NCBI RefSeq assembly: GCF_006345805.1
Contig: NC_043013.1
Span: forward strand, 29,450,001-29,514,000
DNA: 64,000 nt
Direction: 5' to 3'
Source of the DNA: Octopus sinensis
Lineage: Eukaryota
The translations under genes and the position numbers were made by a program. Shown in pieces: positions 7,880 to 41,925 of this stretch. Position 1 is the stretch's first letter, and each line of letters starts with the position of its first letter. The notes beneath the pieces were generated by a model that searched no databases, was not told the origin of the DNA, and saw nothing but the letters and a program-made list of their open reading frames with translations.

Positions 7880-8090
7880 TATTCTTTTACTTGTTTCAAT
7901 CAAATGACTGGGACCATGCTGGAGCACCGGCTTTTAGTCGAAGAAATCGACCTCGGACTTATTTTGTGTAAGTTTATTCTATCAGTCTCTCAGGCCGAAC
8001 CGCTAAGTTACGGGGACGTAAGCACACCGACATAGGTTGTCAGGCGATGGTGTGTGTGGGTGGGACAAACATAGACATAGACACACACAT
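7880..8090 (-). mobile_element. SINE family A, 3' half
   Basis: Reverse complement of the 1490-1677 tail; the matching 5' half lies at ~8715-8840(-), on the other side of the palindromic element. Confidence 0.7.
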
Positions 8091-8102
8091 AAAAATACAC
8101 AT

Positions 8103-8138
<36 letters not shown>

Positions 8139-8142
<4 letters not shown>

Positions 8143-8675
8143 TATTGGTGAATTGAAGAAATGGAGCTGAACGCAGATTGAACAGAAATCGTTTTATTTC
8201 ATTCTACACGTGTTTCGAAAGGCACAAATTACCAAAATCCGATTGAATAATGGGACCATATTGTGTCTTTCTCTTCAGGAAGAAAAAAGGAAATCCGTTG
8301 GAAAAACAAAAACAGAACAGAGGCGGAGCAAAAAACAAATCGAACTGTGCTCCTAAGAGCCCATGGCGAAACTCCTTTTTTCTTCCTGAAGAGAAAGACA
8401 CAATATGGTCCCATTATTCAATCGGATTTTGGTAATTTGTGCCTTTCGAAACACGTGTAGAATGAAATAAAACGATTTCTGTTCAATCTGCGTTCAGCTC
8501 CATTTCTTCAATTCACCAATAATGTTTTAATTTCAATTATCCGCACCAACGCACGGTTGCAACGCCAGATGGTTGTACCTCCAACCGTGCTGTTTACTGC
8601 TGTGATTTTTGCTACTAAGGTATCGGTTAAACTGTTGATTAATCTACTACAAGATTATTCATCTTTCTATTTCAC

Positions 8676-8680
<5 letters not shown>
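8139..8680. mobile_element. (TA)n-inserted element with 153-bp inverted repeat, each arm carrying an HHR
   Basis: 8139-8291 reads as the reverse complement of 8373-8525 with an 81-bp spacer; (TA)n on both sides. Confidence 0.85.
8381..8466 (+). ncRNA. Minimal type I hammerhead ribozyme motif (mirror copy on minus strand ~8198-8283)
   Basis: TTC-CTGAAGA(8386-8392)-GAAAG...CTTTC-GAAAC-ACGT-GTA-GAA; stem II GAAAG/CTTTC, palindromic ACGT loop III, GUA cleavage triplet, short stem I. Confidence 0.7.
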
Positions 8681-10270: not shown

Positions 10271-10417
10271 GGCCAGTCATCATACCTTGGTTCTACTCTG
10301 ACAGTGTTAAACACTAATGTCACGCATTAGTTTTCCGTAGTTACCAGATTTGTTACTATTAGGATACAAGCAGAATGGATACCCGTTTCTCTGTTATTGG
10401 TCAAGTGACGTCGATAC

Positions 10418-11440
10418 TTGCCTGAAATCCATAACAAATACACCTTCGAGTTGCAATATGCTGATGATACGGTACTTGTCAATTACAGCTCCGCTGGCCT
10501 TCAAAGGCTCTTGGACCACATGTTAGATGCATACAGCCATACTGGCCTAGTCATCAATACCAAGAAGACGGAATTCTTCCAACAGTCTCGTGCGTCCGAC
10601 ACCAACCCATGCTCCTTCCATATTGAAGATGTGACAATTGCTAATATTAACCAATTCACGTACCTTGGCTCAGTCTTCAACAACACCCTCGATCTGACAG
10701 ACGATATTCAGCGCCGTATTCGTCTTGCCTCTGCTGTGTTTGGTCGGCTAAGTACTCGCATCCTTCTAAACAAAAACATCAACATCAGAACAAAAGTGGC
10801 TGCCTACAATGCTGTTTGTGACTTAGTCCTGCTATATGGCAGCGAGTCTTGCATGACTTACCTGCGTCATATCAAGATGCTCGAACGGTTTCATATCTCT
10901 CGCCTTCAATAACTTCTTGGCTTACACTGGTGGAACAGGATCCCTTATGTTGAGATACGTGGCCGAATATACAGCCAGTCATTGGAGGTAACAATCGCTA
11001 ACCGCCAACTGAGATGGGCATGTCATTCGAATGTCTTCAAATCGATTGCCCCGCCTTGTTATGTACGGCGAACTTGAAGATGGAAGATGCTCTGTCGGTG
11101 GCCAGCACAAACGCTTTAAAGATCACCGGAAGGCAACGCTGAAAAAGTGTCATATTTCTCCCGACAGTCTCGAATCAATGGCTGCAGAGTGCACTAGCTG
11201 GCACGACGCATACAAGACTGGCATCACCAAACTCCAAGAAGATCTACTGCAGAGTGAAGCGGCACGTCGCGCCCGGCAGAACGAGCAGAAACCTGGACGT
11301 CAACAGCTGCAAGGGTTTATATGGTCCACCTGCAGACGTATCCTTCTCTCCAGAATCGGACTTCACAGTCATCAGAGGTCACATAACTAGAAATGACGTT
11401 TGGAAAAAGTACTCATCGCTTCACGATGTTCACGAAATGA
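10418..11440 (+). mobile_element. 5'-truncated RTE-clade LINE (RT C-terminus + C-terminal zinc finger), degraded
   Basis: LQYADD, GLVINTKKTE, FTYLGS, RLPRLVMYGEL, TCRR...SRIGLHSHQRSH; stop at 10912; followed by (TACA)n. Confidence 0.85.
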
Positions 11441-12203: not shown

Positions 12204-12416
12204 CCCCTATTCTCTCTCTCACACACACAGACACACAAATGCACACAAACATTTTAGAGAAGTAAGCATATTTGATGAATCTAAACTTATTTGGCATCTC
12301 TGAAAATATTCAATACGTATTATATGTATGTATATATATAAATATATATATATATACACACACCACATATATATATATATATATTATATATATATATATT
12401 TATATATATAAGTATA

Positions 12417-12448
<32 letters not shown>

Positions 12449-12562
12449 CATATATGTATATATATTTTTATATATGTATATGTATTTATATGTATGTATA
12501 TATGTATATATATTATATATATAATATATATATATATATAATATATATATATATAAATATAT

Positions 12563-15290
12563 TAGTTGCGGATTCTAGCTCGCTCTGATACTGAGTTGAG
12601 TTGATGCCTTCTAGTATCTCAAAATTCAATATATAATCATTTATGATTATAGTATTCTACGCTGAAGAGAAAAGAAGTTTTGGTAAGGTAGAATTATTTA
12701 ATATTAATTCTTATGCTTTCCTAAAAACTTGATTTCGAAACGTGCGTCCGTAGATAACTTAAAATTGTATGATAGATTGCCGTCAATTCATTCTCTCTTA
12801 CCTGTTTGTGTCTGCCTTCCAATTGCTGTTTTTACTGAGATCTCCCTTTTTAGTAGAAGAAATAGCTATAACTCTTTGACTGCTATTTCTAAATTCGGTA
12901 TGTGGTAAGGCAATTCGTTGCTAGACCCTTTATTGCTTAGTATTACTTAAATTTTCCTCGAATGAGGCTTTTACATGCCGAAGACTACTTGTTGTAATTG
13001 ATAATTATTCCAATTAATTAATTTCACCCTTCATTATTACGGATAACCATATTTTATCTCAGTAGATGACCACAGCATCTTGTTTTGGCTACACGCGGGT
13101 GGGAGGGGCTGGTGACACAATCTTTTCATTCACACTTTCAATTTGGGGATACTAGTTGCGGATTCTAGCTCGCTCTGATACTGAGTTGAGTTGGTGCCTT
13201 CTAGTATCTCAAAATTCAATATATAATCATTTATGATTATAGTATTCTACGCTGAAGAGAAAAGAAGTTTTGGTAAGTAGAATATTTAATATTTAATTCT
13301 TTGCTTTCCTAAAAACTTGATTTCGAAACGGGCGTCCGTAGATAACTTAAAATGTATGATAGATTGCCGTCAATTCATTCTCTCTTACCTGTTTGTGTCT
13401 GCCTTCCAATTGCTGTTTTTACTGAGATCTCCTTTTTAGTAGAAGAAATAGCTATAACTCTTTGACTGCTATTTCTAAATTCGGTATGTGGTAAGGCAAT
13501 TCGTTGCTAGACCCTTTATTGCTTAGTATTACTTAAATTTTCCTCGAATGAGGCTTTTACATGCCGAAGACTACTTGGTGTAATTGATAATTATTCCAAA
13601 TTAATTAATTTCACCCTTCATTATTACGGATAACCATATTTTATCTCAGTAGATGACCACAGCATCTTGTTTTGGCTACACGCGGGTGGGAAGGGGCTGG
13701 TGACACAATCTTTTCATTCACACTTTCAATTTGGGGATACTAGTTGCGGATTCTAGCTCGCTCTGATACTGAGTTGAGTTGGTGCCTTCTAGTATCTCAA
13801 AATTCAATATATAATCATTATGATTATAGTATTCTACGCTGAAGAGAAAAGAAGTTTTGGTAAGTAGAATATTTAATATTTAATTCTTATGCTTTCCTAA
13901 AAACTTGATTTCGAAACGGGCGTCCGTAGATAACTTAAAATTGTATGATAGATTGCCGTCAATTCATTCTCTTACCTGTTTGTGTCTGCCTTCCAATTGC
14001 TGTTTTTACTGAGATCTCCTTTTTAGTAGAAGAAATAGCTATAACTCTTTGACTGCTATTTCTAAATTCGGTATGTGGTAAGGCAATTCGTTGTTAAACC
14101 CTTTATTGCTTAGTATTACTTAAATTTTCCTCGAATGAGGCTTTTACATGCCGAAGACTACTGGTGTAATTGATAATTATTCCAAATTAATTAATTTCAC
14201 CCTTCATTATTACGGATAACCATATTTTATCTCAGTAGATGACCACAGCATCTTGTTTTGGCTACACGCGGGTGGAAGGGGCTGGTGACACAATCTTTTC
14301 ATTCACACTTTCAATTTGGGGATACTAGTTGCGGATTCTAGCTCGCTCTGATACTGAGTTGAGTTGGTGCCTTCTAGTATCTCAAAATTCAATATATAAT
14401 CATTTATGATTATAGTATTCTACGCTGAAGAGAAAAGAAGTTTTGGTAAGGTAGAATTATTTAATATTTAATTCTTATGTTTCCTAAAAACTTGATTTCG
14501 AAACGTGCGTCCGTAGATAACTTAAAATTGTATGATAGATTGCCGTCAATTCATTCTCTCTTACCTGTTTGTGTCTGCCTTCCAATTGCTGTTTTTACTG
14601 AGATCTCCTTTTTAGTAGAAGAAATAGCTATAACTTTGACTGCTATTTCTAAATTCGGTATGTGGTAAGCAATTCGTTGCTAGACCCTTTATTGCTTAGT
14701 ATACTTAAATTTTCCTCGAATGAGGCTTTTACATGCCGAAGACTACTTGGTGTAATTGATAATTATTCCAATTAATTAATTTCACCCTTCATTATTACGG
14801 ATAACCATATTTTATCTCAGTAGATGACCACAGCATCTGTTTTGGCTACACGCGGGTGGGAAGGGGCTGGTGACACAATCTTTTCATTCACACTTTCAAT
14901 TTGGGGATACTAGTTGCGGATTCTAGCTCGCTCTGATACTGAGTTGAGTTGGTGCCTTCTAGTATCTCAAAATTCAATATATAATCATTTATGATTATAG
15001 TATTCTACGCTGAAGAGAAAAGAAGTTTTGGTAAGGTAGAATTATTTAATATTTAATTCTTATGCTTTCCTAAAAACTTGATTTCGAAACGGGCGTCCGT
15101 AGATAACTTAAAATTGTATGATAGATTGCCGTCAATTCATTCTCTCTTACCTGTTTGTGTCTGCCTTCCAATTGCTGTTTTTACTGAGATCTCCCTTTTT
15201 AGTAGAAGAAATAGCTATAACTCTTTGACTGCTATTTCTAAATTCGGTATGTGGTAAGGCAATTCGTTGCTAAACCCTTTATTGCTTAGT
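12563..15290 (+). repeat. Head-to-tail array of a ~588-bp non-coding unit (4.6 copies), one HHR per unit; retrozyme-like
   Basis: Unit starts (TAGTTGCGGATTCTAG) at 12563, 13153, 13741, 14326, 14911; near-identical copies; both ends run into (TA)n. Confidence 0.95.
12656..12754 (+). ncRNA. Minimal type I hammerhead ribozyme (first of five in the array)
   Basis: Stem I TCTACG/CGTAGA, core CTGAAGA (12662-12668), long stem II GAAA.GAAGTTTT...AAAACTT..TTTC, GAAAC-GTGC-GTC (cleavage after 12748). Confidence 0.85.
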
Positions 15291-15300
15291 ATATATATAT

Positions 15301-15356
<56 letters not shown>

Positions 15357-16124: not shown

Positions 16125-16728
16125 GTATGTATGTTTTTATGTATGTATGTATGTATATATGTATGTATGTATGTATGTATGTGTGTATGTGAGTGTGCTG
16201 AAAGGTTCCTGACTGTGGGCAAACACACTGTCTTTTACTACCCGCCATTGCTTCTTCACCAAACTTTTTGGCGCCCTCCGATTCTTCCCCTCTCTTCCTC
16301 CCATCCTCCTCCCCTCTTCCTCCCATCCTCCTTAATCCCTTCTTTCTCCTTTTCTCTTGGTCACTGATTCTGTCCCCTGCCTTCCACCCTCTTTGATTCC
16401 CTCTCTCTCTGTCTCTCTTTCTCTCTCTCCTGCGACCTGCTGCTTCTTAAACCATTCTGTTGGCCTTCGTATCTCGACCAACATGTGTCCCCGCTACCGA
16501 AACGGTAATTATTTCTACGCCAGCTATGTTGTTGTTGTTGTTTTTGTCTCATTTGGTCTAAAGTCGTATGACAACCACCGTTATATATATTTTGTTTATT
16601 CATTACTGTTTTCAATTTCGTTTTCGTCTCTTGTATTCACATCCGTCTTGTGCGTTCACATTCCTGTCTTCTACCAAGAAATCTAATGCTTACAGCTTAG
16701 TTTTTTTTCTTGGGGCTGGCCGAGTTGG

Positions 16729-16797
16729 AGCAAATATCAGAATTGAACAGCCGAAATTTGCTATGATGATTCGGTGTCTGACTGAAGATTGAAGGCT
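16729..16797 (+). ncRNA. Candidate non-circularly permuted (pseudoknotted) hammerhead ribozyme; repeated at ~19193-19261 and ~19922-19990
   Basis: AGCAAAT-A-TCAGA ... CAGCC-GAA-ATTTGCT ... TCTGA-CTGAAGA: stem III (7 bp) and stem I (5 bp) flank the core nucleotides in register, but the strand order is non-standard and the stem II partner is ambiguous. Confidence 0.5.
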
Positions 16798-17217
16798 TCG
16801 AATGATTTGTCTGTGTTCCGTGTTCGTCCCTTCCTGTATATCACGTTCATTATATATAAAAACATTCATTCTTATATTATTGCGGCGTTACGTGCACCCC
16901 CCCCCCCCGTTTGTTTGTCCAATTTTAAACCCTGCACGACTTCTATACACACTGTCTTTTACTACCCGCCATTGCTTCTTCACCAAACTTTTTGGCGCCC
17001 TCCGACTCTTCCCCTCTCTTCCTCCCATCCTCCTCCCCTCTTCCTCCCATCCTCCTTAATCCCTTCTTTCTCCTTTTCTCTTGGTCACTGATTCTGTCCC
17101 CTGCCTTCCACCCTCTTTGATTCCTCTCTCTCTGTCTCTCTTTCTCTCTCTCCTGCGACCTGCTGCTTCTTAAACCATTCTGTTGGCCTTCGTATCTCGA
17201 CCAACATGTGTCCCCGC

Positions 17218-18944
17218 GGATCAGTTGTCTGTTCGTCAGTTTGAGTTCGGTCGTGTTTTTTTACGCTCGTAAAATTCGGTAAAAAAGATCAAAAAGAATT
17301 GTTGTGTTGTTGTGGAAATTTTGAACGGCGTTTTAAAGCGGTTTCGCGTTCCACTGGTTCTGCGCGTTACACTTTTTCTGTTTTGACGGCCGTTTTGGCC
17401 TGTCAGGCGGGAGGAGATGGATGACCACTCCCTAGTGGAGGAGTCGGAGGAAGAATGGATATTTGAGAGCTTGTCGGAGACATCGAACTCTGAAGACGAG
17501 CAAATCGGTGATGTAAATAATGTGGAGAAAAATTACAGGAAAACGTACGCAGGAGTTGCAAAAAAGAAGACGGAACAGGAAAAAGAAATAAACCTAGAAA
17601 AATTGCCAGGTTTCCAGAGGTATATGAGGAAGGACAGCGGCGAGGTGGAACTGGAACCACCACCAAAGAGAAAGGAATGGTACAATAAGAGGACCATAAT
17701 TTACAGGGTGTTCGTGAACGAAAGAAAGAAAATAGAGATCGTAAACATGGAATGGATAGAGGAGGCCCTGAGAAGATCGGAGGAGGAAATCATTTTCCTG
17801 ACTCGAGGATCGAAGTACGGTACTGTAGTGGTGCATTTTAAAAGTGAGACTGCAGCGAGGAGGATGGCGGTGAAGGCGGTGAAGTCAGAGAAAGGGTAAC
17901 ACTTTTACCTATGTACTTGAATAGAAGGATCACACGAGTAAGGGTGGAGGGAGTGCCACCAAACGTGGAGGCTGAGTGGATTGTGGCGGCTGTGATCAGC
18001 GGCCACGAGGAGAAAGTAGATATTCTCCATGCCTCGGTCAAGACCGAGGGCTGAGAGAGGCGTAATAGTGGAGCTGAACGTGGCAGGCGGACAGCGAGGT
18101 ACTGGTGGACCTGGCGGAGAGCATTAAATTGGGAGACGTGATTATGAGAGTGTGGGTGGAGGGCAGAGCTCCACGTTGTTACAAGTGTGGCCTGAGGGGC
18201 CACATAAGAGCCTTCTGCCCTCCCCCACCAAGAGAAAAGGAAATCGTTGAGGAAATCTCCAAAAGAGGAGGCCCCAAAAGAAGAAGAAATTAAAGAGAAG
18301 CAGACGGAAAGGGAAATGACAGAGGAGGAGGAGATGCAAAAAGAGTGTGAGGAGGGCAGAAAGAAGAGAAAAGGAAAGAAAAGGAAAAATGTGCGGCGAA
18401 GCCCCAACCCACCCCATACCACCCCACACCCTTGGAGACCCATCCTGCCCCCGCAAAACAGCAATCCCACCCACTCCCCGCCTACAAAAAACGAAAACAG
18501 ACACACAGAACATACAAAAGCCCCAGTCCTACTTTTTATGTGTTGTGGGGAAGGGGGATACTGAGAACGCAAGAAGGCTTTTTGAAGACGATGTATGGCA
18601 GGAGTATGAGGACGGAAGCTATGCGGTATTCGATTTTGAACTCATGGGCTCTTTGATGAGCAAGTGCAATGAACTACGTATAAATTGTTTATCAGCATTT
18701 ATGAAGGATGATATGATAGAGAGATATGAGAGAAATGAAAGGTAGGTGAGGTGAAAAACTTTGGAATCGTGATAGGAAACGGAAAGGTAAGTGATGCTGG
18801 CGGAGGGGGCCGTTAGCATCGCTTTCATGTTATCATTTTTTCATTTTAACATTCATTTAATCATAATTTTAATCGCATTGTTTTATGTCCCCCATGTTTT
18901 GTAATGTTCCCTCTTCGTGGCCCCTAGTGGGTAATAAAGAAATA
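17218..18944 (+). mobile_element. ORF1-only non-LTR retroelement (Tx1/L1-like) with 19-bp TSD
   Basis: GACCAACATGTGTCCCCGC at 17199-17217 and 18945-18963; ends AATAAAGAAATA; single gag-like ORF and no RT. Confidence 0.85.
17417..18745 (+). pseudogene. Frameshifted ORF1/gag-like protein with CCHC zinc knuckle
   Basis: Consecutive ORF pieces: acidic N-terminus, RRM-like YGTVVVHFKSE and RVRVEGVPP, CYKCGLRGHIRAFC (CX2CX4HX4C), Glu/Lys-rich linker, C-terminal domain ending 18745. Confidence 0.75.
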
Positions 18945-20762
18945 GACCAACATGTGTCCCCGCTACCGAAACGGTAATTATTTCTACGCCAGCTATGTTG
19001 TTGTTGTTGTTTTTGTCTCATTTGGTCTAAGTCGCATGACAACCACCGTTATATATATTTTGTTTATCATTACTGTTTTCAATTTCGTTTTCGTCTCTTG
19101 TATTCACATCCGTCTTGTGCGTTCACATTCCTGTCTTCTACCAAGAAATCTAATGCTTACAGCTTAGTTTTTTTCTTGGCTGGCCGAGTTGGAGAAAATA
19201 TCAGAATTGAACAGCCGAAATTTGCTATGATGATTCGGTGTCTGACTGAAGATTGAAGGCTTCGAATGATTTGTCTGTGTTCCGTGTCTCGTCCCTTCCT
19301 GTATTTCACGTTCATTATATATAAAAACATTCATTCTTTATTATTGCGGCGTTACGTGCACCCCCCCCCCCCCCGTTTGTTTGTCCAATTTTAAACCCTG
19401 CACGACTTCTATACACACTGTCTTTTACTACCCGCCATTGCTTCTTCATCACCAAACTTTTTGGCCGGCGCCTCCGACTCTTCCCCTCTCTTCCTCCCAT
19501 CCTCCTCCCCTCTTCCTCCCATCCTCCTTAATCCCTTCTTTCTCCTTTTCTCTTGGTCACTGATTCTGTCCCCTGCCTTCCACCCTCTTGATTCCCTCTC
19601 TCTCTGTCTCTCTTTCTCTCTCTCCTGCGACCTGCTGCTTCTTAAACCATTCTGTTGGCCTTCGTATCTCGACCAACATGTGTCCCCGCTACCGAAACGG
19701 TAATTATTTCTACGCCAGCTATGTTGTTGTTGTTGTTTTTGTCTCATTTGGTCTAAAGTCGTATGACAACCACCGTTATATATTTTGTTTATTCATTACT
19801 GTTTTCAATTTCGTTTTCGTCTCTTGTATTCACATCCGTCTTGTGCGTTCACATTCCTGTCTTCTACCAAGAAATCTAATGCTTACAGCTTAGTTTTTTT
19901 TCTTGGGGCTGGCCGAGTTGGAGCAAATATCAGAATTGAACAGCCGAAATTTGCTATGATGATTCGGTGTCTGACTGAAGATTGAAGGCTTCGAATGATT
20001 TGTCTGTGTTCCGTGTTCGTCCCTTCCTGTATTTCACGTTCATTATATATAAAAACATTCATTCTTATATATATATATATCCCAATAAGGTTCGAAAATC
20101 GATTATGTTCATTTTTTCAGCCTGCGGAGAAATGGCTAGAATTTGCCATGTTTATAATTATACCATATGTTACATGTGTATATATATATGTGTGTGTGTG
20201 TGTGTGTATGTGTGTGTGTGTATGTGTGTGTGTATGTATGTATATATGTATATATATATATATGTGTCCATACATATACCATGCATTCGTATATACATGC
20301 ATATATACATACATCCCTTCTGGGGTGCAAAGGAATAAATATAAGATTGGAGCACTCAATATACTTGGTTTGAGTTACATGAAAATTTTAACGATCTGGC
20401 TCAGCTCAACGTTGCGTTAAGATTCGTAAGACCGTACCGCACATACACGAAACTTGAAGTAATGCAGCGTGAGTGAAAGAATTATAATCCTTCCCGCTCT
20501 CTGTCTCTGTATAACTATATAAGTAGTAACTATTGAAAATGTTTTTATTTTTCATCCCCTTCGAAATTACTCTTAACTGTGGTTTCGACTTTGACTGTTC
20601 GTTTTAGCATGTAAGGTATCCTGTTAGGGTTATCACTTTTGTGTATAAATATACACTTATTTTATATGAAAAATATGTTATCTATTGACTATTTTATGCA
20701 TGCTAGCCACTGGTAGAACATTTCTCTAATTTCTCTACCCTATATATATATATATATTATCG

Positions 20763-20796
<34 letters not shown>

Positions 20797-21134
20797 TCAG
20801 TAAAACTTTAGATTCAGTTGAATATGGTACTTAAGTTAAAGGAACCAGAATTTAGTATGGTGTTATCCATATAATTCAAAATTGGGTGATTATAATCAAA
20901 ACAAGCAACAAGGATATCCAGAGGTAATGCAGTACAATCGTTTCATGCGACTCCATTTAGCCAAAGACACCGATAGAATAAGTACTAGGGTCACGAACAA
21001 TAAGTCCTGGGGTAGATTTGTTCGACTAAAGGCAATGCTCCAGCAAGGTTCAGTCAAATGACTGAAACAAATAAAAAAAATGAGTAAAAGAATATATTAT
21101 TTATATATATATATATTATATTATATATATATAT

Positions 21135-21208
<74 letters not shown>

Positions 21209-21595
21209 ATATATATTTATTGAACGACTAGTTACAAATATCCTTTATTCTCGACATATGTTTCGAAGGCTGCATATTCCTAATTCTGAAGGAATAAGGA
21301 GTACATTATGCAGATTTCTCATCAGGAAAATCAAGCAACTTATGGCGACACCAAAATGCACAAAAAACTTTTAGTCAGCTATATACTTATAATTTTAAAA
21401 TAAATATACAAATTTCCGCACGAAGACACGTAGTCTATGCCCTAGGGACGTAGCTTCAACCGCGTTCTTTCTGATGTGAATTTGCTACCCAGGTATCGGT
21501 TATCTTTCGAATTATCCTTAATAAGATAATTCATTCAATTACTCAAATATATATATATATATAATCAAAATAAGCAACAATGATATCCAGAGGTA

Positions 21596-21685
21596 ATGCA
21601 GCATGATCGTTTCATGCGACTCCATCTAAATGAACAATGCAAGTATTACATCAATTTTAAAATGTAGAGCAATCTTCAGCTGCAT
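21596..21685 (-). ncRNA. Degenerate type I hammerhead motif
   Basis: ATGCAG-CTGAAGA-TTGC...GCAT-GAAAC-GATC-ATG-CTGCAT; partial sister copies read GATC-ATA (~21811,+) and GATT-GTA (~20930,-), implying a GATC-GTA consensus. Confidence 0.6.
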
Positions 21686-22086
21686 AAAAATATAGAATTT
21701 CGTTAAATTCGAAGGACTCATTTCTAATAAGAAAACTATACAAATGAATCCTTCGAATTTTAAAATTGATGTAATACTTGCATTATTCAATTAAATGGAG
21801 TCGCATGAAACGATCATACTGCATTACCTCTGGATATCATTGTTGCTTATTTTGATTATATATATATATATTTGAGTAATTGAATGAATTATCTTATTAA
21901 GGATAATTCGAAAGATAACCGATACCTGGGTAGCAAATTCACATCAGAAAGAACGCGGTTGAAGCTACGTCCCTAGGGCATAGACTACGTGTCTTCGTGC
22001 GGAAATTTGTATATTTATTTTAAAATTATAAGTATATAGCTGACTAAAAGTTTTTTGTGCATTTTGATGTCGACATAAGTTGCTTG

Positions 22087-22171
22087 ATTTTCCTGATGAG
22101 AAATCTGCATAATGTACTCCTTATTCCTTCAGAATTAGGAATATGCAGCCTTCGAAACATATGTCGAGAAT
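22087..22171 (+). ncRNA. Canonical minimal type I hammerhead ribozyme (mirror copy 21247-21331, minus)
   Basis: Stem I ATTTTC/GAGAAT, CTGATGA (22093-22099), stem II GAA..CTGCATA/TATGCAG..TTC, GAAAC-ATAT-GTC with palindromic loop III. Confidence 0.85.
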
Positions 22172-22198
22172 AAAGGATATTTGTTAACTAGTCGTTCA

Positions 22199-22277
<79 letters not shown>

Positions 22278-22558
22278 TAATATATATATTCTTTTACTCA
22301 TTTTTCTTTTATTTGTTTCAGTCATTTGACTGGAGCCTTGCTGGAGCATTGCCTTTAGTCGAACAAATCTACCCCAGGACTTATTGTTCGTGACTCTAGT
22401 ACTTATTCTATCGGTATATTTGGCTAAATCACTAAGTTACGGACATAAACACACCAAAATCGGTTGTCAAGCGACGGTGGGAAACAAACACAGACACGAA
22501 AATACATATATGCATACATATATATGTGGTGTGTGTATATAATATATTAATATATGTA

Positions 22559-23234
22559 TAGAAGAAATAGCTATAACTCTTTGACTGCTATTTCTAAATT
22601 CGGTATGTGGTGAGGCAATTCGTTGCTAAACCCTTTATTGCTTAGTATTACTTAAATTTTCCTCGAATGAGGCTTTTACATGCCGAAGACTACTTGGTGT
22701 AATTGATAATTATTCCAAATTAATTTAATTCACCCTTCATTATTACGGATAACCATATTTTATCTCAGTAGATGACCACAGCATCTTGTTTTGGCTACAC
22801 GCGCGTGGGAAGGGGCTGGTGACACAATCTTTCCATTCGCACATTGAATTCGGTGAACTAGTTGCGGATTCTAGCTCGCTCTGATACTGAGTTGAGTTGG
22901 TGCTATCTAGTATCTCAAAATTCAATATATAATCATTTATGATTATAGTATTCTACGCTGAAGAGAAAAGAAGTTTTTGGTAAGATAGAATTATTTAATA
23001 TTAATTCTTATGCTTTCCTAAAAACTTGATTTCGAAACGTACGTCGTAGATAACTTAAAATTGTATGATAGATTGCCGTCAATTCATTCTCTCTTACCTG
23101 TTGTGTCTGCCTTCAATTGCTGTTTTTACTGAGATCTCCCTTTTTAGTAGAAGAAATAGCTATAACTCTTGACTGCTATTTCTAAATTCGGTATGTGGTG
23201 AGGCAATTCGTTGCTAAACCCTTTATTGCTTTGT
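22559..23234 (+). mobile_element. Dispersed, circularly permuted ~1.15-unit copy of the 588-bp HHR repeat
   Basis: Same sequence as the 12563-15290 unit but starting at TAGAAGAAATAGC; ~85-bp terminal redundancy; HHR loop III reads GTAC; TA-rich flanks. Confidence 0.9.
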
Positions 23235-23333
23235 ATATATAGATATATATATATATATAAACAATGAATTAAATAGTGAGATTCAATTAACAATCTAGTA
23301 CTTTAGTTATATTATAACATAATATACTATATA

Positions 23334-27979: not shown

Positions 27980-30900
27980 ATATTTCGGAATGGTCATATT
28001 GCCAGTTTAGCCAATAAAACACACGCACTATATATTTGGTGTTATTTTGCTTCAGTGATATTTATTTTTTACATTAATCTTAATCTTATTTCGGCCAAAG
28101 TTCTTTCGTCACACTCCTGTGACCGCATCAGTGGTCCTTTGTTTTCTTCTCACTTACTTGTGGCTCTCCTTACTAACCGTCAGCTATTTTGTATTTCTAT
28201 TGTATGTCTTCATTTGTGCATGCTTATATCTCTATGTGCGTCTATGTTTATTTAGTGTGTGTGTGGGGGGGATGCCTGTAATATTTGTATCTTCTGTTAT
28301 ATACATTCTTGTAATTTGTGTTTTTTTTTTGTTGTTGTTGCTTTTGTTCTAATTTTGTTCATGTGTTTACATCCACCCATTATATCATTACATATGCTTG
28401 TATGTATGTATACAAACAATTTAGTAATAATAATAATAAATCTAATCGAAAAAAAAAAAAAAGAATATACATATACATATATATATACATACATATACAT
28501 ATACATATATATATATATACATATATACACACATATATACACATATACATGTACATATATATACACATATACATATATATAGATATTCATTTCTATTTCT
28601 TTAATTACCTGTGTATTTATTATGTTTGCAGGATCCACTATTGTCATATGTTGTGGTGTGCGCTATTGCTCCATTCTAGTTTTCTATTCAGGCTAGGTTT
28701 ATTTTCTATTATATGTGTAGCTTCTGTAATTTGTCTAATTGTTGCATCTGTTCTATGTGTGGACAATATCTTAATCTCTATGTTATTGATTGATCCCCCG
28801 TGTTCTTGTTCAGCGTGTTGGTACAGAATCGATGAGCTTTTACCTTCCTTGAGTTGTCTCCAATGTTCATTCACCCGCTCACCAATGCTTCTTGCAGTTT
28901 CCCCTACGTATGTTACTGTCTTGTTACTGCATCGTCCCTCTATACATCTTATACTATAGACCACATTTCTGGCTTTACAGTTCGTTTGTGGGAAATCTAC
29001 ATACAGTGCAATAGTTATCCGTACAGAGTTCTACTAAAAGGATAGCTTCTACCAATTATAGATCTGATAGGGTTGCCTGGCTTTTCAACAACCTTAATTC
29101 TTAGTTTAAGTTTATCTAGGGTCCTTCTAAAGCGGTACGCTAGTTCACCTCCAGGGGTGGTGTCAACGAACATGACACTCTGGTATTTATGGCTATCATA
29201 CCAAGAGTTGGCCTTCCCTATTTTCTTTTTTGTCCTTTCTATAGTGTTCCATGACTTGTTCCTATAGAGTGGGCAAATCCCATTCCTATCATTACATAAT
29301 ATATTATCAAATTTCTTCATGGCTCCTTTGTATACTCTGATCCTTTCTTTATGGCTGTAACCTGAGAACTGCATGCGGTGAATGAAATACTGTATGTGTC
29401 TCTTTAATTCTGTAGGCTCGCACATGCGTGACACATTTCTCATTATTCTGACGAGGTCTGCCATCAAAATATTGAATTTGGCATTGCCCGCAATGGCTGA
29501 GTTCCGGTGGATCAGGTATTTTGAGGCCATAGGTTTTGCATAGTATGAATGAAGGATTTGGGTTTTATTTTTCACAATTTCTAGCCAGAGTTCAGTGTCT
29601 AGTACTGGTAGTCTATGGTTGGGGGTTTAAGTGGGGTAGTCTATTGTGACCTTAATACTCTGGTGGATGGAGTTAGCTATTTGCTGGATGCTCTCCATAG
29701 TATTAGTTTCTATTACTATATCAACAGTACTCTCTTGTGGGGGTGCCTTTACTACTATATTGATATCATCAACATAGCGAGAGTACATGTTTACGAGTAT
29801 GGATTTCTGCAGTAGGCATTCTTTAAGCCTTCTGTCCCACCATACCATGAAGAGGTTGGCCACATCACCAGCGATACTAACACCGATGGCTGCCCCCTCG
29901 TCCTGGGCATATATTTTATTATTAAATTTAAATGTGTGGCCTTTTAGGGTAACTCTTATACTAGCTCCTAGTGCATGTGCGATCATTTTCTTTACCTGAT
30001 GGACATTTGCGGGGCTCCGTATGGCTCTGGTCCATCCGCGCCATCTTTCTATATGTGTCTTCCTAGCCATAGAAGTAATTGTAGGCGGTCTACCTCTTAA
30101 ACATCTACTGGGGCAGAAACTACTAAGATTATGTTTATCTAAGTATTCACTATTATATGTCAGTCTAAGTAGGAGGCCCAGTTCTTCTGTGTCGACATTA
30201 CAGAACTCCACCTGGCTCTCGTTGATCATCTCCACGCACTTCTCCACTGCAAAATCTACGTCAATCGATGGGTATAGGGATACCACATCCATGCTACCTA
30301 CTATACATCCTGTCAAGTCACAAGTTTTGTTACAGTCACTGATCCTGCTTAGGAGATCTTCTGTGCTGTCACACACATCAGGTGACATCCTGATTATAGG
30401 GCATATGATCATTGAGAGGAAGTAGGAGATTCTGTAATTGCTAGCGATATTCGCTCCACAGACTGGTCTTGTTGGTGGTCCTGCTATAGGGTCAGTAAAA
30501 CCTTTATGGTCCTTGCGAAGTCCATACAGTGCCGGGATATCATTGTTCCAGGCTTAGAAATTCTTTGCAGTACGTTTCTGAGGTCCCAGAACAATTGTCC
30601 ACATCATCATGTGGGCATTGAGGACCTTTTCTCTCTCCTCATGCGCCTGTACAGTTGTTACTTTTGTATTGGCGATATGAGGTTGCATTGCCTGGATGTA
30701 GTTCGGTAAGCTGTCTATTGACATCCTGCCGGACTTATCCGTGGGAAGGCATATCACCTCTCCGTTCCTCGTGCGCTGAATGAGCTTCTGTAGGCCACAT
30801 GCAGGTTTAATCCCTGTTGTTGGGCATCTGTCTTATTCTGTCTCTGTCTCTTAATGTATAATCCTAAAATCTGTCTAAGTTTGGTCCTAGCTATAGTGAA

Positions 30901-32215
30901 CTGTGCTTCCATGTGGTCATTAGTACGTCTTGGGATGTATACTCTTTTGTTGAAGGGTAATGTTGTTGGATAAATTCGGTTCATGCAGTAAGTTTTGTCG
31001 CATACGTTGAAGAATTGAGTGTCAAAGGGATGGGTATACATGTCAATAGTCTCTCTAGGGTTATCTTCATTATCGTTATTGTTTCCAACATCAGCCTTCC
31101 TATTATTATTATCACCATTACCACTACTACTACTACTAGTATTCCTATTACCACCACAACTATCACTACTATCCTCATTACTACTTCTACTGTTACCATC
31201 ACCACTACTACTACCACTATTATTGTTATTACCTTTATTCCTACCATTGCCATTATTACTATCATCGCTAGTGATATATTCATTGTTCCTGTTTCTGGTA
31301 TATGTGTTGTTTATATTAGTGTTGGGTTTTATGTCTGTCTGTTGGTCCCTGTCAATCCCCCTGTTGCGGTCGTTATTTTTGTTCCTATGAGTATTGTTAT
31401 CTGTTTCAAGTCCGCTGACTCCCTGTCCAAGGATCCTGTTGCATTCAACTTTATTCTCCATCGTGACCCCTATGACACAACTTTTATTCGTGTCTTTGTG
31501 ACTATGGCTATCTGTGTGGTGTTTTGTGTGTCGGTTCTCCCTATAATTGTTGTTGTTGTTGCTGTTGTATACGATTTTTCTCTCTCTGTTTGTTTTTTTG
31601 TTTTTGTATCTATTGTTTGTGTCTATGCATACATTTTTTCTATTGTTATTGTTGTTGTCGCTGTTAGGGTTCGTGTTGTTGTTGTTGTTGCCGCTGTTAG
31701 GGTTCGTGTTGCTTTTGTTGCTACGGTTGTTATTGTTGCGGTCATTATTGTTGTGTTGTTGTTGCTGCGGTTAGTGTTTTTTCGCGTTGTTGTTGTTGTC
31801 GCAAGTGTTGTTGTCATAGTATCTATTTAAATTCCAACGTATTTTTGTGAACGACTTTTCAATCTCGGACAGGCATTTGATGGTATTCACTTTACTATAC
31901 ACTGCATACTTTGGTGGTAGTTGAAGTATCGATATTTCATCTGGGTCCGTTGTTACTCCCCCATAGATGTTCGCTTCATTGTCTTTATTGAACTCTTCTG
32001 GTAGTAGCACATCTTCCATAATAATTCCATTTATTGTATCTGGATACTTCTGCTTTTCTTCCTTTGCGAGCTCATATTGACGTTTCTGTTTCAACCACGA
32101 TAACTTCCTCTTAAAATGGATATTGCATTGGTGTATTACATGTCTGTTTTCTTCATATATTATATCCATTATTAAGGTTTTCTCCTTTCGTGTGGTGATA
32201 CTTTTAATTTCTTTT
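27977..32215 (-). mobile_element. Penelope-like retroelement (RT + C-terminal GIY-YIG endonuclease; Naiad-like), 5'-truncated and frameshifted
   Basis: PTDKSG, GSMDVVSLYPSI, GAAIG...ANLFM, YSRYVDDI, CPLYR..W, SVMFVDTTPGGEL, Cys-rich linker (CTDNYCTVC), VYSIRC...[16 protein letters not shown]...E...LN. The 3' boundary at (TA)n is inferred; coding pieces span 28644-32215. Confidence 0.85.
28093..28137 (-). ncRNA. Variant hammerhead-like motif downstream of the Penelope-like ORF
   Basis: GGACCA-CTGATGC-G-GTCACA(GGAG)TGTGAC-GAAAG-AA-CTT-TGGCC; good stem II, imperfect stem I, core A9 replaced by C. Confidence 0.5.
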
Positions 32216-32446
32216 AAAATGTTCAGAACGGCATTGTTTTCGTCAGAAAAGTAGATATAATTTTTTATCAAAGTGGTTATATATTCTATAATTTTCACAG
32301 ACAATCAATACAATATTAATTGTTATTGTCTGCGATTTTGGTGTAATTTGAGAGGATAATACAAAAGTTATGGATGATTTAGTGATTTACTGCAAAACCC
32401 ATGGCGGCCAACATGATCAGAACGGTTGAAAAAATAACAAAATAAT

Positions 32447-33919
32447 GTTAGTTAGTTAGTTAGTTAGTTAGTTAATTTGGCTCAAAAGCAAATAGCAAGG
32501 CCATGTAGGGGGGCATGGAGTTAAGTACAGGGTGGTGTTCATGTAAAGAGTTCAGGCCACTTGAGGTCCAGGGAGGCTTTGAACAAAGCGGTCGTCGGCA
32601 TCTTCACCATCTCGTCTGGCAGCTTGTTCCACGGATCCGCAACCCGGACGGAGAAAGCTCCTCTCCTTCGATTGAGATGAAATCGTCGCAGGTAGAGCTT
32701 TTCGGAATGACCCTGCAGCCGACGCTCCGGAGCAGGAGTGAAGAACAGCTCTTTCGAGAGGTTACACTTCCCGCTTATGATGTTGTGGGCGAGAATGAGA
32801 TCACCACGGCGGCGGCGTTTTTCAAGAGAACAAAGGTCGAGCGTCCTCAGCCTTTCTTCGTAGGACAAATTTTTGAGACCATGAACCATGCGGATAGCCA
32901 GCCTCTGGACTCTTTCGAGGTGCTGTATGTCTTTGAGGAGATAAGGAGAAGAGGCTTGAATCCCATACTCCAATATGGGTCTCACCAGCGTGACATAGAG
33001 TGGCAGGAATATGGCTGCTGTGAGCATTCCGAATGACCGTCGAATCAAAAACAGAATTCCGCGCGCTTTGTTGGCAGCATGGACGCACTGGGCCGAAGGC
33101 GAAAAGGAGGAATCCACCAAGATACCCAGGTCCTTTACCTGATCGGTCCTCTCCAGCAGCAGACGACCCGGCTCGAAATCAAGTTGAATTGCAGGAGTAG
33201 AGCCGACAGGCAGATGACAGCACTTTGACACGTTCAGACACAGGTCCCAATCGTTAGACCACTTCCAAATTTGGTGGAGGCATCGACGAAGATCCTCTAT
33301 ACTACCGCGAGGAGCGACCAGTTTGATATCGTCGGCAAATAGAAGGGTGTGTTGCGTGAGGTCGTCGGGCAAGTTATTTATGAAGACTAAGAACAACAAG
33401 GGCCCAAGCACTGAACCTTGAGGCACGCCACTGCTCGCACTGGAGACGTCGGACCGCGAACCATTCACTTGAACTTGGAAGGAGCGATCTGAGAGGAAGG
33501 CACCAACCCATCGTACAATATCTGGATGGAAACTATATGCTTGAAGCTTGACAAGTAGTAGGCGGTGGTTTACCGAGTCAAAAGCTTTGGCAAAGTCCAA
33601 TAAAACGATGTCAACAGCATCACTATCATCGAGGATGCGCGTCACTAATTCTTCCATTACTAGTAAGTTGGTCAAGCATGATCTCTTCGGCACGAAGCCG
33701 TGTTGGGAATCAGTGATCGAGGCTGTGTTTAGGAGGTGGAGCATCATACTTTTCTTAAGGATGGTTTCGAACATCTTGCTGATTATTGATGTAAGGGAAA
33801 CCGGTCGGTAGTTAAGCGGGTCTTCGCGGCTCCCTTTCTTGAAAATTGGGAAGATTATCGCTGTTCTCCAGTCTGCAGGTATAACACCCGTCGCCAATGA
33901 CATATTGAATAGTCGTGTT
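32447..33919 (-). mobile_element. 5'-truncated CR1-group LINE nested in Tc1
   Basis: Absent from Tc1 copy 2; 3' tail of (TAAC)n; uninterrupted RT ORF. Confidence 0.9.
32539..33903 (-). CDS. Reverse transcriptase domain (ORF2 fragment, 454 aa) of a CR1-group LINE
   Basis: NYRPVSLTS, QHGF, LDFAKAFDSVNH, SGVPQGSVLGPLLF, LFADDIKL, KDLGI, RRRRGDLI; open frame but N-terminally truncated. Confidence 0.9.
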   Translation of the reverse strand: MSLATGVIPADWRTAIIFPIFKKGSREDPLNYRPVSLTSIISKMFETILKKSMMLHLLNTASITDSQHGFVPKRSCLTNLLVMEELVTRILDDSDAVDIVLLDFAKAFDSVNHRLLLVKLQAYSFHPDIVRWVGAFLSDRSFQVQVNGSRSDVSSASSGVPQGSVLGPLLFLVFINNLPDDLTQHTLLFADDIKLVAPRGSIEDLRRCLHQIWKWSNDWDLCLNVSKCCHLPVGSTPAIQLDFEPGRLLLERTDQVKDLGILVDSSFSPSAQCVHAANKARGILFLIRRSFGMLTAAIFLPLYVTLVRPILEYGIQASSPYLLKDIQHLERVQRLAIRMVHGLKNLSYEERLRTLDLCSLEKRRRRGDLILAHNIISGKCNLSKELFFTPAPERRLQGHSEKLYLRRFHLNRRRGAFSVRVADPWNKLPDEMVKMPTTALFKASLDLKWPELFT

Positions 33920-35254
33920 ATGACAGAGAATACTGGAATTATTTAATATTTAGTGTGAAGCCCTTTAGCTTCAATTTCTTGCTGGTTGATCTTATTCCAT
34001 TCTTCCTGAAGGGCATTCCATAATTGCTCAGTTGTTTTAGGATTTCTGGCTTTCGAACGTTCTCCTAGAATATTCCACACATTTTCAATAGGATTGAGAT
34101 CTGGGCTTTGAGCTGGCCAATCCATAACAATAACCTTTTCAGCCTTGAGGAAGTTCATGACCACCTTAGCCTTGTAACATGGGGCATTGTCCTGCATGAA
34201 TTTGGGTGGTCGCTTAGTTGAATTTCTCAGCACAGGCAAGACATGATCTTTTACAAGTTGTTTATAAACTCCTGGATTTACCTTTACATGTAATCGCACC
34301 AAAGGACCCACACCATCTCCAGATATCATTCCCCAAACCATGACACTTCCTCCACCGAATTTAACACTAGTCTTAAGGCATTTAAGTAACAATTTTTCAC
34401 CTACCTTTCTACGAACGTACCTTTTCCCATCTAAGCCAAATAGCATAAACTTAGATTCATCACTGAAGTGCACCGTTTGCCATTTTTCTTGAGATTAGAA
34501 CACATGTTCGGTTGCAAAGTTAAGACGACACTTTTTATTCATGGAGCTGATCAGTGGCTTCACTGCAGGTGCTCTTGCTTGTAGGTCATGTTCAACTAAA
34601 CGACGAGACACAGTTTTTCGAGATAAAGTTTTCTTCAATACAATGCTCATTTTCCGAGAAACAGCAGCAGCAGTTTTAAATCTGTCCTTTTTAACCAACT
34701 TTACCATAGCACGATCTTCTCTCTTGGTCGTTTTTCTTGGCCTACCTGAAAACTTTCTTGCTTCACACGAACCACAATCTTCGTAGACCTTAAGAATACC
34801 GTGTACAACACTTTTTGACTTGTTAACAATCTTTGCAATAGATCCAATACTTAAATTATCCTCCCTTCGAAGCTTAATAATCTGCTGACGAATTGGTAAC
34901 GGAGTAAGTGGCATTATATTAACAAAGTACACTGCAAATATTCTTACTAATGTTTAGTAAACGAACCGTCACGTAAACAAATTCAAAACATTAGAGTTCG
35001 CCGGTTAAATATACTAAAACACGGAGTAAAAGCAACCGTTCTGATCCTTTTGGCCGCCATGGGTTTTGCAGTAAATCACTAAATCATGCATAACTTTTGT
35101 ATTATCCTCTCAAATTACACCAAACTCTCAGGCAATAACAAATAATATTGTATTCATTGTCTGTGAAAATTATAGAATATAAAACAACTTTGATAAAAAA
35201 TTATATCTACTTTTCTGACGAAAACAATGCCGTTCTGAACATTTTGGCCGAAAC

Positions 35255-35305
<51 letters not shown>

Positions 35306-36065: not shown

Positions 36066-36291
36066 TTTATTTATTTTTATTTTTATTTTTTTTATTTTTA
36101 TTTGTTTCAGTCATTTGACTGCGGCCATGCTGGAGCACCGCCTTTAGTCGAGCAAATCGACCCCGGGATTTATTCTTTGTAAGCCCAGTACTTATTCTAT
36201 CGGTCTCTTTTGCCGAACCGCTAAGTGAAGGGGATGTAAACACACCAGCATCGGTTGTCAAGCAATGCAAGGGGGACAAACACAGACACAA

Positions 36292-36325
<34 letters not shown>

Positions 36326-36497
36326 GCATATATACGACAGGCTTCTTTCAGTTTCCGTCTACCAAATCCACTCACAAGGCATTGGTCGGCCCGGGGCTAT
36401 AGCAGAAGACACTTACCCAAGATGCCACGCAGTGGGACTGAACCCGGAACCATGTGGTTGCTTAGCAAGCTACTTACCACACAGCCACTCCTGCGCC
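36066..36497 (-). mobile_element. SINE family A, full length
   Basis: Reverse complement of 1290-1677. Confidence 0.85.
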
Positions 36498-39719: not shown

Positions 39720-41925
39720 AAGCATTTACCATCTATTTCCTGGACCATGGTTTCTGACTTTTTTTTTAGCTGGATTGGCCACGTGTTTATATGTTTAATC
39801 TTGGCGTACCTGTTGACGAAGACTTCGCCTGGCAAATTATCTGTTCGTCACATCATACCAGCTTTTCTCCATCTGGAGGTGTGGACCGAGCCAGACCCCG
39901 AGCAATTTAACTGGACCGTCTGTCCAGCAAACCCACGACGCTGTTGGACGGCATGGACTTGCCTCTCCAGGTGACGAGTTGCAAGGCCACTGATTTTTTC
40001 CGCATAAATTTTTGCTCCTGTCATCGCTTCATATTCTTGTAGTGTGTCGCCAATCAGGTAGGTCTATATGCCTGTGGCTCGACACTATGACAGTGACATC
40101 ATCGGCGTAAGCAGATACGCTTTTCCCACATCCTAGATCACGTGGAACACTCCTCAAAGTCTCCAACATCCGCAGCAGTGGCTCAAGAGTCGGGACATAC
40201 GGAAGGGGATAGAGAAGGTACCCTTGCCGAACCGAGCGCAAGATGCTGAATGGTTCTGACAGGTGACCATTCACCTGAACAACAGAGAAGATGCCGCTGT
40301 ACGAAGCAGCGATCCAACAGCGGGAAACCGTGCCGAAACTGTCTGCCCTGGGAACAGCTGCCAAATATTGATGGTCGACCCTATCGAAGGCTTTAGATTG
40401 ATCTAAATTGGTCAAATCCCCACCCATGCTAGCTTCGTTACCCACTCTCTCTATGATGTAGCGCATGAGGTGGAGGCTGTCGCGAATAGTCCTGTTTTGG
40501 ATGGTGCATATTTGCGCCTCGCTAATCAGCTTGTCCACAACAAGCGCCAACATCTTGGCTGACACCTTGGCTAAAATCTTCAACTCTGCATTCTCTGAAA
40601 TTCTCTATAACGTACCCCTTGTCTGGGTCCTTTCTCAGCAGTGCCACTATCCCTCGGCAAACAAAAGTGGGAATTCTCCTATTTTGTTGCCAGTTGAGGT
40701 AGACATCTGCTGAGAGGCTCGCAAACAAGTCTAGCATTAAAATATAAAGCTCGTAGGGCTTTATATTTTCCTCTCGTGCAGCTCTTCATCGCTTCCTCTA
40801 TTTCCGCGGCTGTTATCGGCCTTTTGCAGCACTCCGCCTCGTTCGCCGAGAATTGCAGCTGGCCGTCCACGTAGACTCAGAAGTCTGCCCTGTTATCCGT
40901 CCTACCACTCGTCACGAACAGTCGAGCAAAGTGCTGCTGAAAGGCCGCACACATATGCTTCGGGTCGAACATCTCGCACCCGTTCAGATCCACCAAAGAC
41001 CGAATGGTGGCTTTGTTGCTACGTTTTGCCTCCGCCAATCGGGCCCATCGTGCGGCTTTCGTTCCTCCCCGCTTAGTGAACGCGCCTTAGTTCTGACAAC
41101 GCACCCTTCGTGTTTGGCGACGAAACTTTGGTCGAGGGCCAACCTGGCGGCCAACACGTTGGTTGCGATGCTTGTCCTAAATGCCTAATCTAAACATCTA
41201 ACTAAATTTCACTTTATTCTATTTCTTTCTACTAAATGGATTATAATCTAATTGACCTTTTAAGAGCAAACCACCAGTTGTTGTTGACGATTGCACCCGC
41301 CAACTAAAATACTAATCCAGTCTCTATAAACTTGACACGCCGGTAACGACGTGTTCAGCTTCCAGTAACCGGGACCCTGTCTACGAAGCCTATCTAAGTC
41401 GATCGTACAGATCACGAATTTGTGGTCTGTGTAGCCGACAAAATGTAATTGTGGATAAACTATACTATCCTTATCTGCTGGCCTACAGAAGCCTCTATCT
41501 AAGTACTATCGAGATAATCCAATGCGATTTGTCCAAGTCCACATTGGCACATTCAGGTAATCTTGGCGGTACCTGTCAGACAGTTGAAAACGTTTGAGCA
41601 GGTTTTTGAGGCTTTTGCACCCCTTCTCCTATCAGATCCTCTCACACAATCGAAATGTCCAATTAAGACAGCGTTCCAATCTACTAACACAAATTTTCGA
41701 GACGTTTCCAGGAAAACCTCCAGACGCTTGAGGTAATCCGGCTGCCCAGCCAATGTCAGAGTAGAGGCAGCCACCAGTCTGAAGGCACCGTCGTCACTGC
41801 TGTTCACATCTAGGACCACCGACTTACCTTCTGGATCTAGGGAGATTACCTTTATTTTCAAATCCAGACCTTTCCAGAAAAGTACCGCAGTACCATCACC
41901 GCCGTCCCCTGACCGACTCGGAGGT
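39720..41925 (-). mobile_element. Decayed Tx1/L1-clade LINE ORF2 (AP endonuclease + RT)
   Basis: G.AVLFWK, DPEGKSVVLDV, DWNAVL (endonuclease); LDQSKAFDRVDH, VRQG..LYPL, SAYADDVT (RT); many frameshifts. Confidence 0.8.

Follow-up and report, generated by a model that had tools for sequence, protein, structure and literature searches.

Animal non-LTR retrozymes were defined by Cervera and de la Pena (2020; PMC7229834), who report that coral, mussel, and axolotl contain circles of 170 to 400 nt and suggest Penelope-like elements as the helpers of these retrozymes. A 2026 preprint (Li, Clavereau and Pollet; 10.64898/2026.07.22.740005) describes units of 51 to 972 bp, links them to pseudo-LTRs, and reports cleavage in one of nine predicted Xenopus retrozyme dimers, the other eight having failed; no mollusc is sampled in the part of it available to us. 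The animal hammerheads described by Cervera and de la Pena (2014; PMC4209133) have a helix II of 4 bp, or of 7 to 8 bp in minimal forms, and those that cleave as dimers show a palindromic loop III pattern. Craig et al. (2021; PMC8557442) describe Penelope-like elements with a (TA)n bias and inverted copies, list Octopus Penelope-like families with a (TA)n preference, and point out "half-core" motifs with a 35- to 50-nt spacing, including one in an Octopus Naiad. For giant squid, 235 Rfam hammerhead matches are given, with no analysis in the part of the source available (PMC6962438). Further related literature was compared in the same partial form (PMC7761336, PMC6765202, PMC6155905, and PMC8490949). 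In the literature covered, which takes in subscription papers only thinly and whose supplements may show such forms, we found neither an octopus or other cephalopod retrozyme nor a natural hammerhead with a long stem II.

The window analyzed here, a 64,000-nt stretch of microsatellite-rich animal genome DNA, contains a tandem array (family A) in which every unit carries a type I hammerhead with an unusually long stem II. Based on the hammerhead cores, the insertion junctions, and the predicted folds, we conclude that family A is probably a high-copy, non-autonomous animal non-LTR retrozyme that is moved via RNA circles by a Penelope-like enzyme.

RESULTS

Structure of the family A array

The array on the + strand (Table 1) consists of 4.65 tandem units of 585 to 590 bp that are ~98% alike, which agrees with an earlier, sequence-only reading of this DNA that had placed ~4.6 near-identical noncoding units here. 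The units start at 12563, 13153, 13741, 14326, and 14911, and the fifth is partial. The predicted cleavage sites, at unit position 184, lie 588, 588, 587, and 586 nt apart, as expected from the ~588-nt monomers of that reading. The long monomer, which had been put forward as a special feature, is not new, because ~587 nt falls within the range of unit lengths already reported in the parts of the 2026 preprint available. The longest ATG-initiated open reading frame in the three units checked has 37 codons, and the units are noncoding, with a GC content of 0.34 to 0.35. Self-comparison of the window revealed no LTR-internal-LTR layout in family A, and no tRNA gene was found in the 64 kb. Tandem Repeats Finder has a longest period of 500 and is hence blind to this array.

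Pairwise, the array copies differ by 2 to 9 substitutions and 1 to 14 gap columns. Differences private to a single copy comprise 11 deletions and 3 substitutions, and this predominance of deletions makes them look partly like long-read consensus error, which is probably what they are in part. The array is a mosaic, in which variants are shared by copies that are not neighbors; we therefore rejected a single pass around one monomeric circle as the origin of the whole array. One of the local variants, a G at alignment column 364, occurs in copies 1, 2, and 4 and is rare in public sequencing runs. In monomers delimited by successive cuts, it is linked to the GGGC form of loop III in 4 of 4, an outcome that chance gives 1 time in 4.

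Table 1. Positions of the features discussed, numbered from the first letter of the window
Feature	Coordinates	Strand	Remarks
Family A tandem array	12563..15290	+	Between (TA)n tracts
(TA)n tract, 5' junction of array	12321..12562	.	Likely insertion target
(TA)n tract, 3' junction of array	15290..15352	.	Element ends at unit position ~380
Type I hammerhead, copy 1	12656..12754	+	Loop III GTGC; 68-nt stem II region; predicted cut after 12748
Hammerhead, copy 2	13246..13342	+	Loop III GGGC; predicted cut after 13336
Hammerhead, copy 3	13833..13930	+	Loop III GGGC; predicted cut after 13924
Hammerhead, copy 4	14419..14517	+	Loop III GTGC; predicted cut after 14511
Hammerhead, copy 5	15004..15103	+	Loop III GGGC; predicted cut after 15097
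Second family A locus	22559..23236	+	1.15 units; 95% identical; 90-bp terminal redundancy
Family B, left arm	21234..21561	-	328-nt inverted pair; core 21253-21325; 54-nt stem II region; loop III ATAT
Family B, right arm	21857..22184	+	Core 22093-22165; (TA)n after a short tail
Family C element	8139..8680	-	Between (TA)n tracts; ~70% like B
Broken Penelope-like element	28581..32304	-	RT, CX4CxxC linker, C-terminal GIY-YIG; ends in (TA)n
SINE-like family copies	1290-1678, 7880-8119, 22292-22525, 36096-36491, 43640-44046, 58229-58630		

The family A hammerhead has a canonical core and a long stem II

All five array copies carry the series TCTACG-CTGAAGA-spacer-GAAAC-loop-GTC-CGTAGA, with an intact core, a 6-bp stem I, a G10.1-C11.1 pair, a helix III of 2 bp, and a predicted cleavage site GUC. 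The elements that define a canonical type I hammerhead (CUGANGA, GAAA, NUH, 6-bp stem I, G10.1-C11.1, and a helix III of 1 to 2 bp) are thus all found in family A, and a complete hammerhead is present in at least two consecutive units of the repeat, in fact in 5 of the 5 copies. On this point the earlier claim of an intact hammerhead in every unit stands. Its description of stem II as extended is also right, but the ~65 nt given for it is slightly short: the spacer between CTGAAGA and GAAA measures 68, 66, 67, 68, and 69 nt in copies 1 to 5. Within these 66 to 69 nt, stem II is formed by 4 bp, a 2-by-2 internal loop, and then a long helix. The canonical 4-bp helix II with a short loop 2 that touches loop 1 is absent.

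The distribution of loop III forms over the five copies (Table 1) is as previously read. A palindromic loop III is found in copies with GTGC or GTAC and not in those with GGGC. The self-complementary forms GTGC, GTAC, ATAT, and ACGT, which match the pattern described in PMC4209133, are predicted to form duplexes of -7.0 to -10.3 kcal/mol, while pairing of GGGC with GGGC is weak (-3.3 versus -8.8 kcal/mol). The cleavage-competent fold lies above the local minimum by 2.1 kcal/mol for GTGC and by 4.4 kcal/mol for GGGC.

An Rfam scan of the window gave no match at gathering score, and no hammerhead was reported at an E value of ≤10 over positions 12500 to 13800, which hold the first two units. The copy at the second locus scores 16.9 bits with RF00163, against a threshold of 34. 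A default hammerhead search therefore misses this element, as the sequence-only reading had anticipated. The weak Rfam matches to MH_s25 and to microRNAs in the window are chance or simple hairpins, and GTCCGTAGA at 59587 is a chance 9-mer without a core.

Two further families pair a long stem II with different letters

A scan of the window for the hammerhead core with a spacer of 45 to 75 nt yields 10 matches, compared with 0.04 expected from 100 shuffles. Six of these are in family A, and the others are two inverted pairs, families B and C (Table 1). When stems are demanded in addition, 7 matches are found, compared with 0.07 expected from 30 block shuffles of the window. Because each inverted pair is probably one event, the matches represent three independent sequences, two of which, B and C, are related. 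The arms of family B are 99% alike, and their hammerheads face outward around a 300-bp hairpin element (arms at 21549-21663 and 21757-21871), a similar end of which lies at 20891-20959. The cores of family C, at 8205-8278 (-) and 8386-8459 (+), sit inside a 153-nt perfect inverted pair and have a 55-nt stem II region, loop III ACGT, a GTA site, and an interrupted stem I. Both families consist of single units in inverted pairs, have their ribozyme close to the 3' end and a short tail, and are flanked by (TA)n. Within the window, we found no sequence link between family A and family B or C outside the core.

The spacer between the core halves is 54 to 69 nt in the three families. With stem II anchored at the core, 10 of its first 12 positions are paired in A, B, and C alike (shuffle p of 0.006, 0.0009, and 0.003, respectively). 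Positions 7 to 11 are all paired within each family (5/5), using different letters, and when the two arms are taken from different families, only 1 to 2 of 5 remain paired for A crossed with B or C, and 4 of 5 and 2 of 5 for B crossed with C. Controls in which the arms are slid score lower, by a margin of only 1 to 2 pairs for family A. The pairing of a long stem with different letters across three families indicates, at the level of sequence comparison, that the ribozyme is under selection. A natural hammerhead with a stem II of 54 to 69 nt may be new.

Family A loci lie in (TA)n and exceed one unit

The second family A locus begins at unit position 288, the array at position 1. In its hammerhead, loop III reads GTAC and one C is missing from the predicted cleavage site. 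Both loci lie in (TA)n, are longer than one unit, and end at the same place, ~190 nt beyond the cleavage site. A microsatellite target and a variable 5' end are thus seen at 2 of the 2 loci in the window. Since both are embedded in (TA)n, a target-site duplication is indiscernible at either. We found no inverted 5'-truncated partner copy at these two loci. No family A 3' end, either at these loci or among the run junctions listed below, coincides with unit position 184, where cleavage is predicted. The copied RNA therefore spanned that site, and we infer that the template was either a ligated circle or an uncleaved multimer. An uncleaved linear multimer fits the family A junctions equally well.

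Family A is abundant in public sequencing runs

At least half of the words of the unit are present in 20 of the 24 public runs listed, which cover 6 organism labels and 10 studies. Family A contigs number 5323, 2051, 34, and 29 in four runs; together with the second locus in the window, these thousands of contigs, which are counts of contigs and not of copies, indicate many dispersed copies. The copies are 95 to 99% alike across several organism labels. The exact head-to-tail joint from 13740 to 13153 occurs in three of four runs and a variant joint in the fourth, and variant joints are found in all but one of the four. Among the loose ends listed, which are 21 rows of 193, further TA junctions lie behind 13529 (at least 2 contigs) and behind 13639 (at least 21 contigs).

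In the runs, GTGC and GTAC dominate loop III and GGGC is nearly absent. The second letter is T in 74218 of 74218 and in 480659 of 480724 depth units in two deep DNA-like runs. We conclude that GGGC is a local form of loop III and a rare one.

None of the 24 runs is listed as RNA. In run X6, which we guess to be RNA, A>G changes occur at 13206, 13239, and 13377, all of them at predicted A-U pairs and absent from a DNA-like run with the same organism label. These three changes are possibly A-to-I editing. Across runs, the ratio of A>G to T>C is 19:11 in X6 and X10 (both guessed to be RNA) versus 8:12 in two others, which is not a significant difference (Fisher p=0.15).

Exact family A motifs are absent from the metagenome and viral contigs searched, and the general long-stem motif is likewise absent from the viral contigs. 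In the metagenome contigs, of which 45 of 64 parts were covered, the general motif matches at least 121 loci, 38 of them distinct. None of these 38 control matches has a stem I of ≥5 bp and none resembles A, B, or C; one has a comparable stem II and four have a self-complementary loop III.

The family A monomer is predicted to fold strongly as a circle

The circular fold of the first monomer has a predicted energy of -154 kcal/mol (z of -6.8 against 60 shuffles), compared with a z of -2.3 for the antisense, and the predicted pairing of the circular monomers is 63 to 67%. Variants found in the runs break a predicted pair at 9 of 39 places, versus 14.2 expected (p of ~0.02), where the 39 places are those listed and leave out 13 further rows and a second variant at 13271. 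None of the same 39 places falls in the 35 core positions, but this is not significant (P=0.09). A stable hairpin (z of -3.9) spans the unit junction at 13140-13215, and by eye, the subfamily variants in the runs appear to retain its base stem via G-U pairs.

A Penelope-like element lies in the same window

The broken Penelope-like element (Table 1) includes a reverse transcriptase open reading frame at 29627-30553 that shares 99% identity with a protein whose record carries the label Octopus vulgaris, which makes the host an Octopus. Pfam matches to RVT_1 and GIY-YIG were obtained, both under curated cut-offs, from the 2 informative ORFs of 6, and the CX4CxxC linker is seen in the homologue. 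An insertion separates RT motifs in this element, which also contains a long stretch rich in Asn. Its layout fits the Neptune/Nematis type. Near relatives of the protein (40 to 57%) come mostly from marine-type contigs, with none in viral contigs. Three loci were found in genome contigs, one of which (L122) is a real relative: a short contig, binned into a bacterial metagenome-assembled genome but probably host DNA, that carries a Penelope-like ORF at 38-2310. By reading, the 3' part of L122 has no CTGANGA core.

Family A shows no homology to the window element (score of 26, shuffle mean of 25). The final 20 nt of the element are similar to the beginning of family C, also with a score of 26; this weak hint, noticed post hoc, is the best among 195 tiles after TA tracts, and 15 of 4264 tiles reach that score. 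In the file of Octopus Naiad, Chlamys, and Hydra consensuses (PMC8557442), six of seven motifs have no exact match, in a format whose line breaks could hide matches, and the match of the seventh is coding and irrelevant. No autonomous partner for family A was matched among the window element, these consensuses, and the viral and genome contigs. We regard the window element as a candidate for the kind of helper that family A would use.

Several other repeats were observed in the window. A GC-richer element at 16223-20070 has long direct repeats (16476-17217 resembles 18945-19689, and 16223-16877 resembles 19413-20070) with short ORFs between them that lack a clear Pfam match. Two transposon copies at 33920-35262 and 50564-51919, with terminal pieces at 32216-32428, are 92% alike and are presumably Tc1/mariner-like, judging by ORF motifs. 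LINE-like reverse transcriptase fragments lie at 32539-33942 (-), which is an open frame of 467 codons, at 10409-11390 (+), and at 40029-42038 (-). A dispersed SINE-like family (Table 1) has members of 250 to 400 bp that are 75 to 90% alike and often lie beside (TA)n.

DISCUSSION

Proposed mechanism

If family A is a retrozyme, its arrays would be transcribed on the + strand and each hammerhead, with the core and stems observed, would cut after GUC to give ~587-nt monomers. Cleavage would probably be best as a dimer, because helix III has only 2 bp and a self-complementary loop. By analogy with the animal retrozymes of PMC7229834, a host ligase such as RtcB would join the monomers into self-paired circles. 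A Penelope-like reverse transcriptase/endonuclease would then nick (TA)n and prime at TA-like spots in the RNA, and reverse transcription would go around at least once, giving inserts of more than unit length with variable 5' ends, like those at the junctions in the window. Local unequal exchange or conversion may afterward have reshuffled the array into the mosaic observed. The long stem II would take the place that a short helix II and loop 2 normally occupy, and we speculate that the internal loop 3 to 5 bp from the core may provide a contact with stem I.

A broader proposal is that octopus harbors a whole class of active long-stem-II hammerheads on abundant, A-to-I-edited RNA circles that are targeted to (TA)n and driven by Penelope-like enzymes, with the internal loop replacing loop 2 and several TA-like priming phases recording reverse transcription of circles. 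We offer this only as a tentative possibility, and a doubtful one in its full extent.

Alternative explanations

The alternative that survives best is that family A is a linear, non-autonomous Penelope derivative, a pseudo-LTR satellite that uses no circle. Its hammerhead would only trim read-through transcripts, and tandem copies would arise via linear multimeric RNA or template jumping followed by unequal crossing-over. We consider this rather unlikely, though it accounts readily for the mosaic array and for the common 3' end at both loci. Families B and C, as single units in inverted pairs with a 3'-near ribozyme and a short tail, look like the Penelope-like insertions described in PMC8557442, and the likeness, noticed post hoc, between the end of the Penelope-like element and the start of family C (score of 26) points the same way. 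The 2026 preprint, in the part available, also prefers a pseudo-LTR origin with local amplification (10.64898/2026.07.22.740005). Against these points, 3' junctions are found at more than one phase (13529 and 13639), a strong circular fold is predicted for the complete unit, comparable arrays of coral, mussel, and axolotl yield circles (PMC7229834, as far as available), and neither the window element nor the Naiad, Chlamys, and Hydra consensuses supply a pseudo-LTR that matches family A.

It is improbable that family A is an inactive satellite, in which a once-functional ribozyme has been silenced by its long stem II or by local changes and the repeat spreads only at the DNA level. The GGGC loop in 3 of 5 copies, the C lost at the second locus, and the interrupted stem I of family C are consistent with such decay, and eight of the nine dimers tested elsewhere were inactive (10.64898/2026.07.22.740005, in the part available). 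However, the core is retained in three families whose long stems are paired by different letters, copies from several organism labels are 95 to 99% alike, and the insert ends look retroposition-like. An artefact of assembly, or a motif arisen by chance, is a very unlikely explanation of the array: private differences are mostly deletions (11 versus 3 substitutions) and none of the contigs listed spans a whole unit, but the 10 motif matches compare with 0.04 expected, head-to-tail joints are present in independent runs, and the flanks differ on the two sides of the array.

Implications

A long-stem-II hammerhead that Rfam misses suggests that counts of animal retrozymes are too low. If the long-stem class exists, searches with a short loop limit have missed many animal retrozymes, and some Penelope "half-core" motifs, with their 35- to 50-nt spacing, could be real ribozymes. 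The (TA)n junctions provide a genome-scale handle on whether Penelope-like enzymes copy animal retrozymes from circles. Octopus is known for heavy A-to-I editing, and a long, highly paired, and probably abundant family A RNA could serve as a substrate for it.

Comparison with known systems

Family A most closely resembles the animal non-LTR retrozymes, with which it shares noncoding head-to-tail repeats, one type I hammerhead per unit, a GC content below 50%, a self-paired predicted circle, many copies, and co-occurrence with Penelope-like elements. It differs from them in its unit of 587 nt, compared with 170 to 400 nt for the non-LTR retrozyme circles tested in the sources as available, and in its stem II region of 66 to 69 nt, compared with a 4-bp helix and a short loop in those sources. 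It also differs in its insertion into (TA)n, and its own cleavage and circles are predictions. The available parts of PMC7229834 and 10.64898/2026.07.22.740005 include no cephalopod example.

The pseudo-LTR hammerheads of Penelope-like elements (PMC4209133; PMC8557442, each as available) likewise have a type I core and a short palindromic helix III, and their inserts share with family A the (TA)n bias and a length of more than one unit, while their inverted pairs recall B and C. In contrast to them, family A has no ORF, its stem I (6 bp) and helix III (2 bp) are of the canonical, not the minimal, form, its helix II is far longer than their 7 to 8 bp, and no autonomous partner was matched. The CTGAAGA core of family A recurs in Hydra-1_Obim, where, however, helix II has 7 bp and the loop 8 nt (PMC8557442, in the part available).

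The satellite hammerheads of axolotl and newt (HHR_Amex1/2) and Sm-alpha of Schistosoma are, like family A, tandem satellites with a weak helix III. In the available part of PMC7229834, helix III of Amex2 consists of 2 bp and a tetraloop, and cleavage is more efficient in the dimeric form. Unlike family A, these satellites have a short helix II, contacts between loop 1 and loop 2, and units of 330 to 350 bp. Finally, the LTR retrozymes of plants also form hammerhead-delimited noncoding circles, of 600 to 1000 nt (PMC5680766, as available), but these have a type III ribozyme, LTRs, PBS/PPT, and a 4-bp target duplication, whereas family A is built of simple tandem units with a type I ribozyme.
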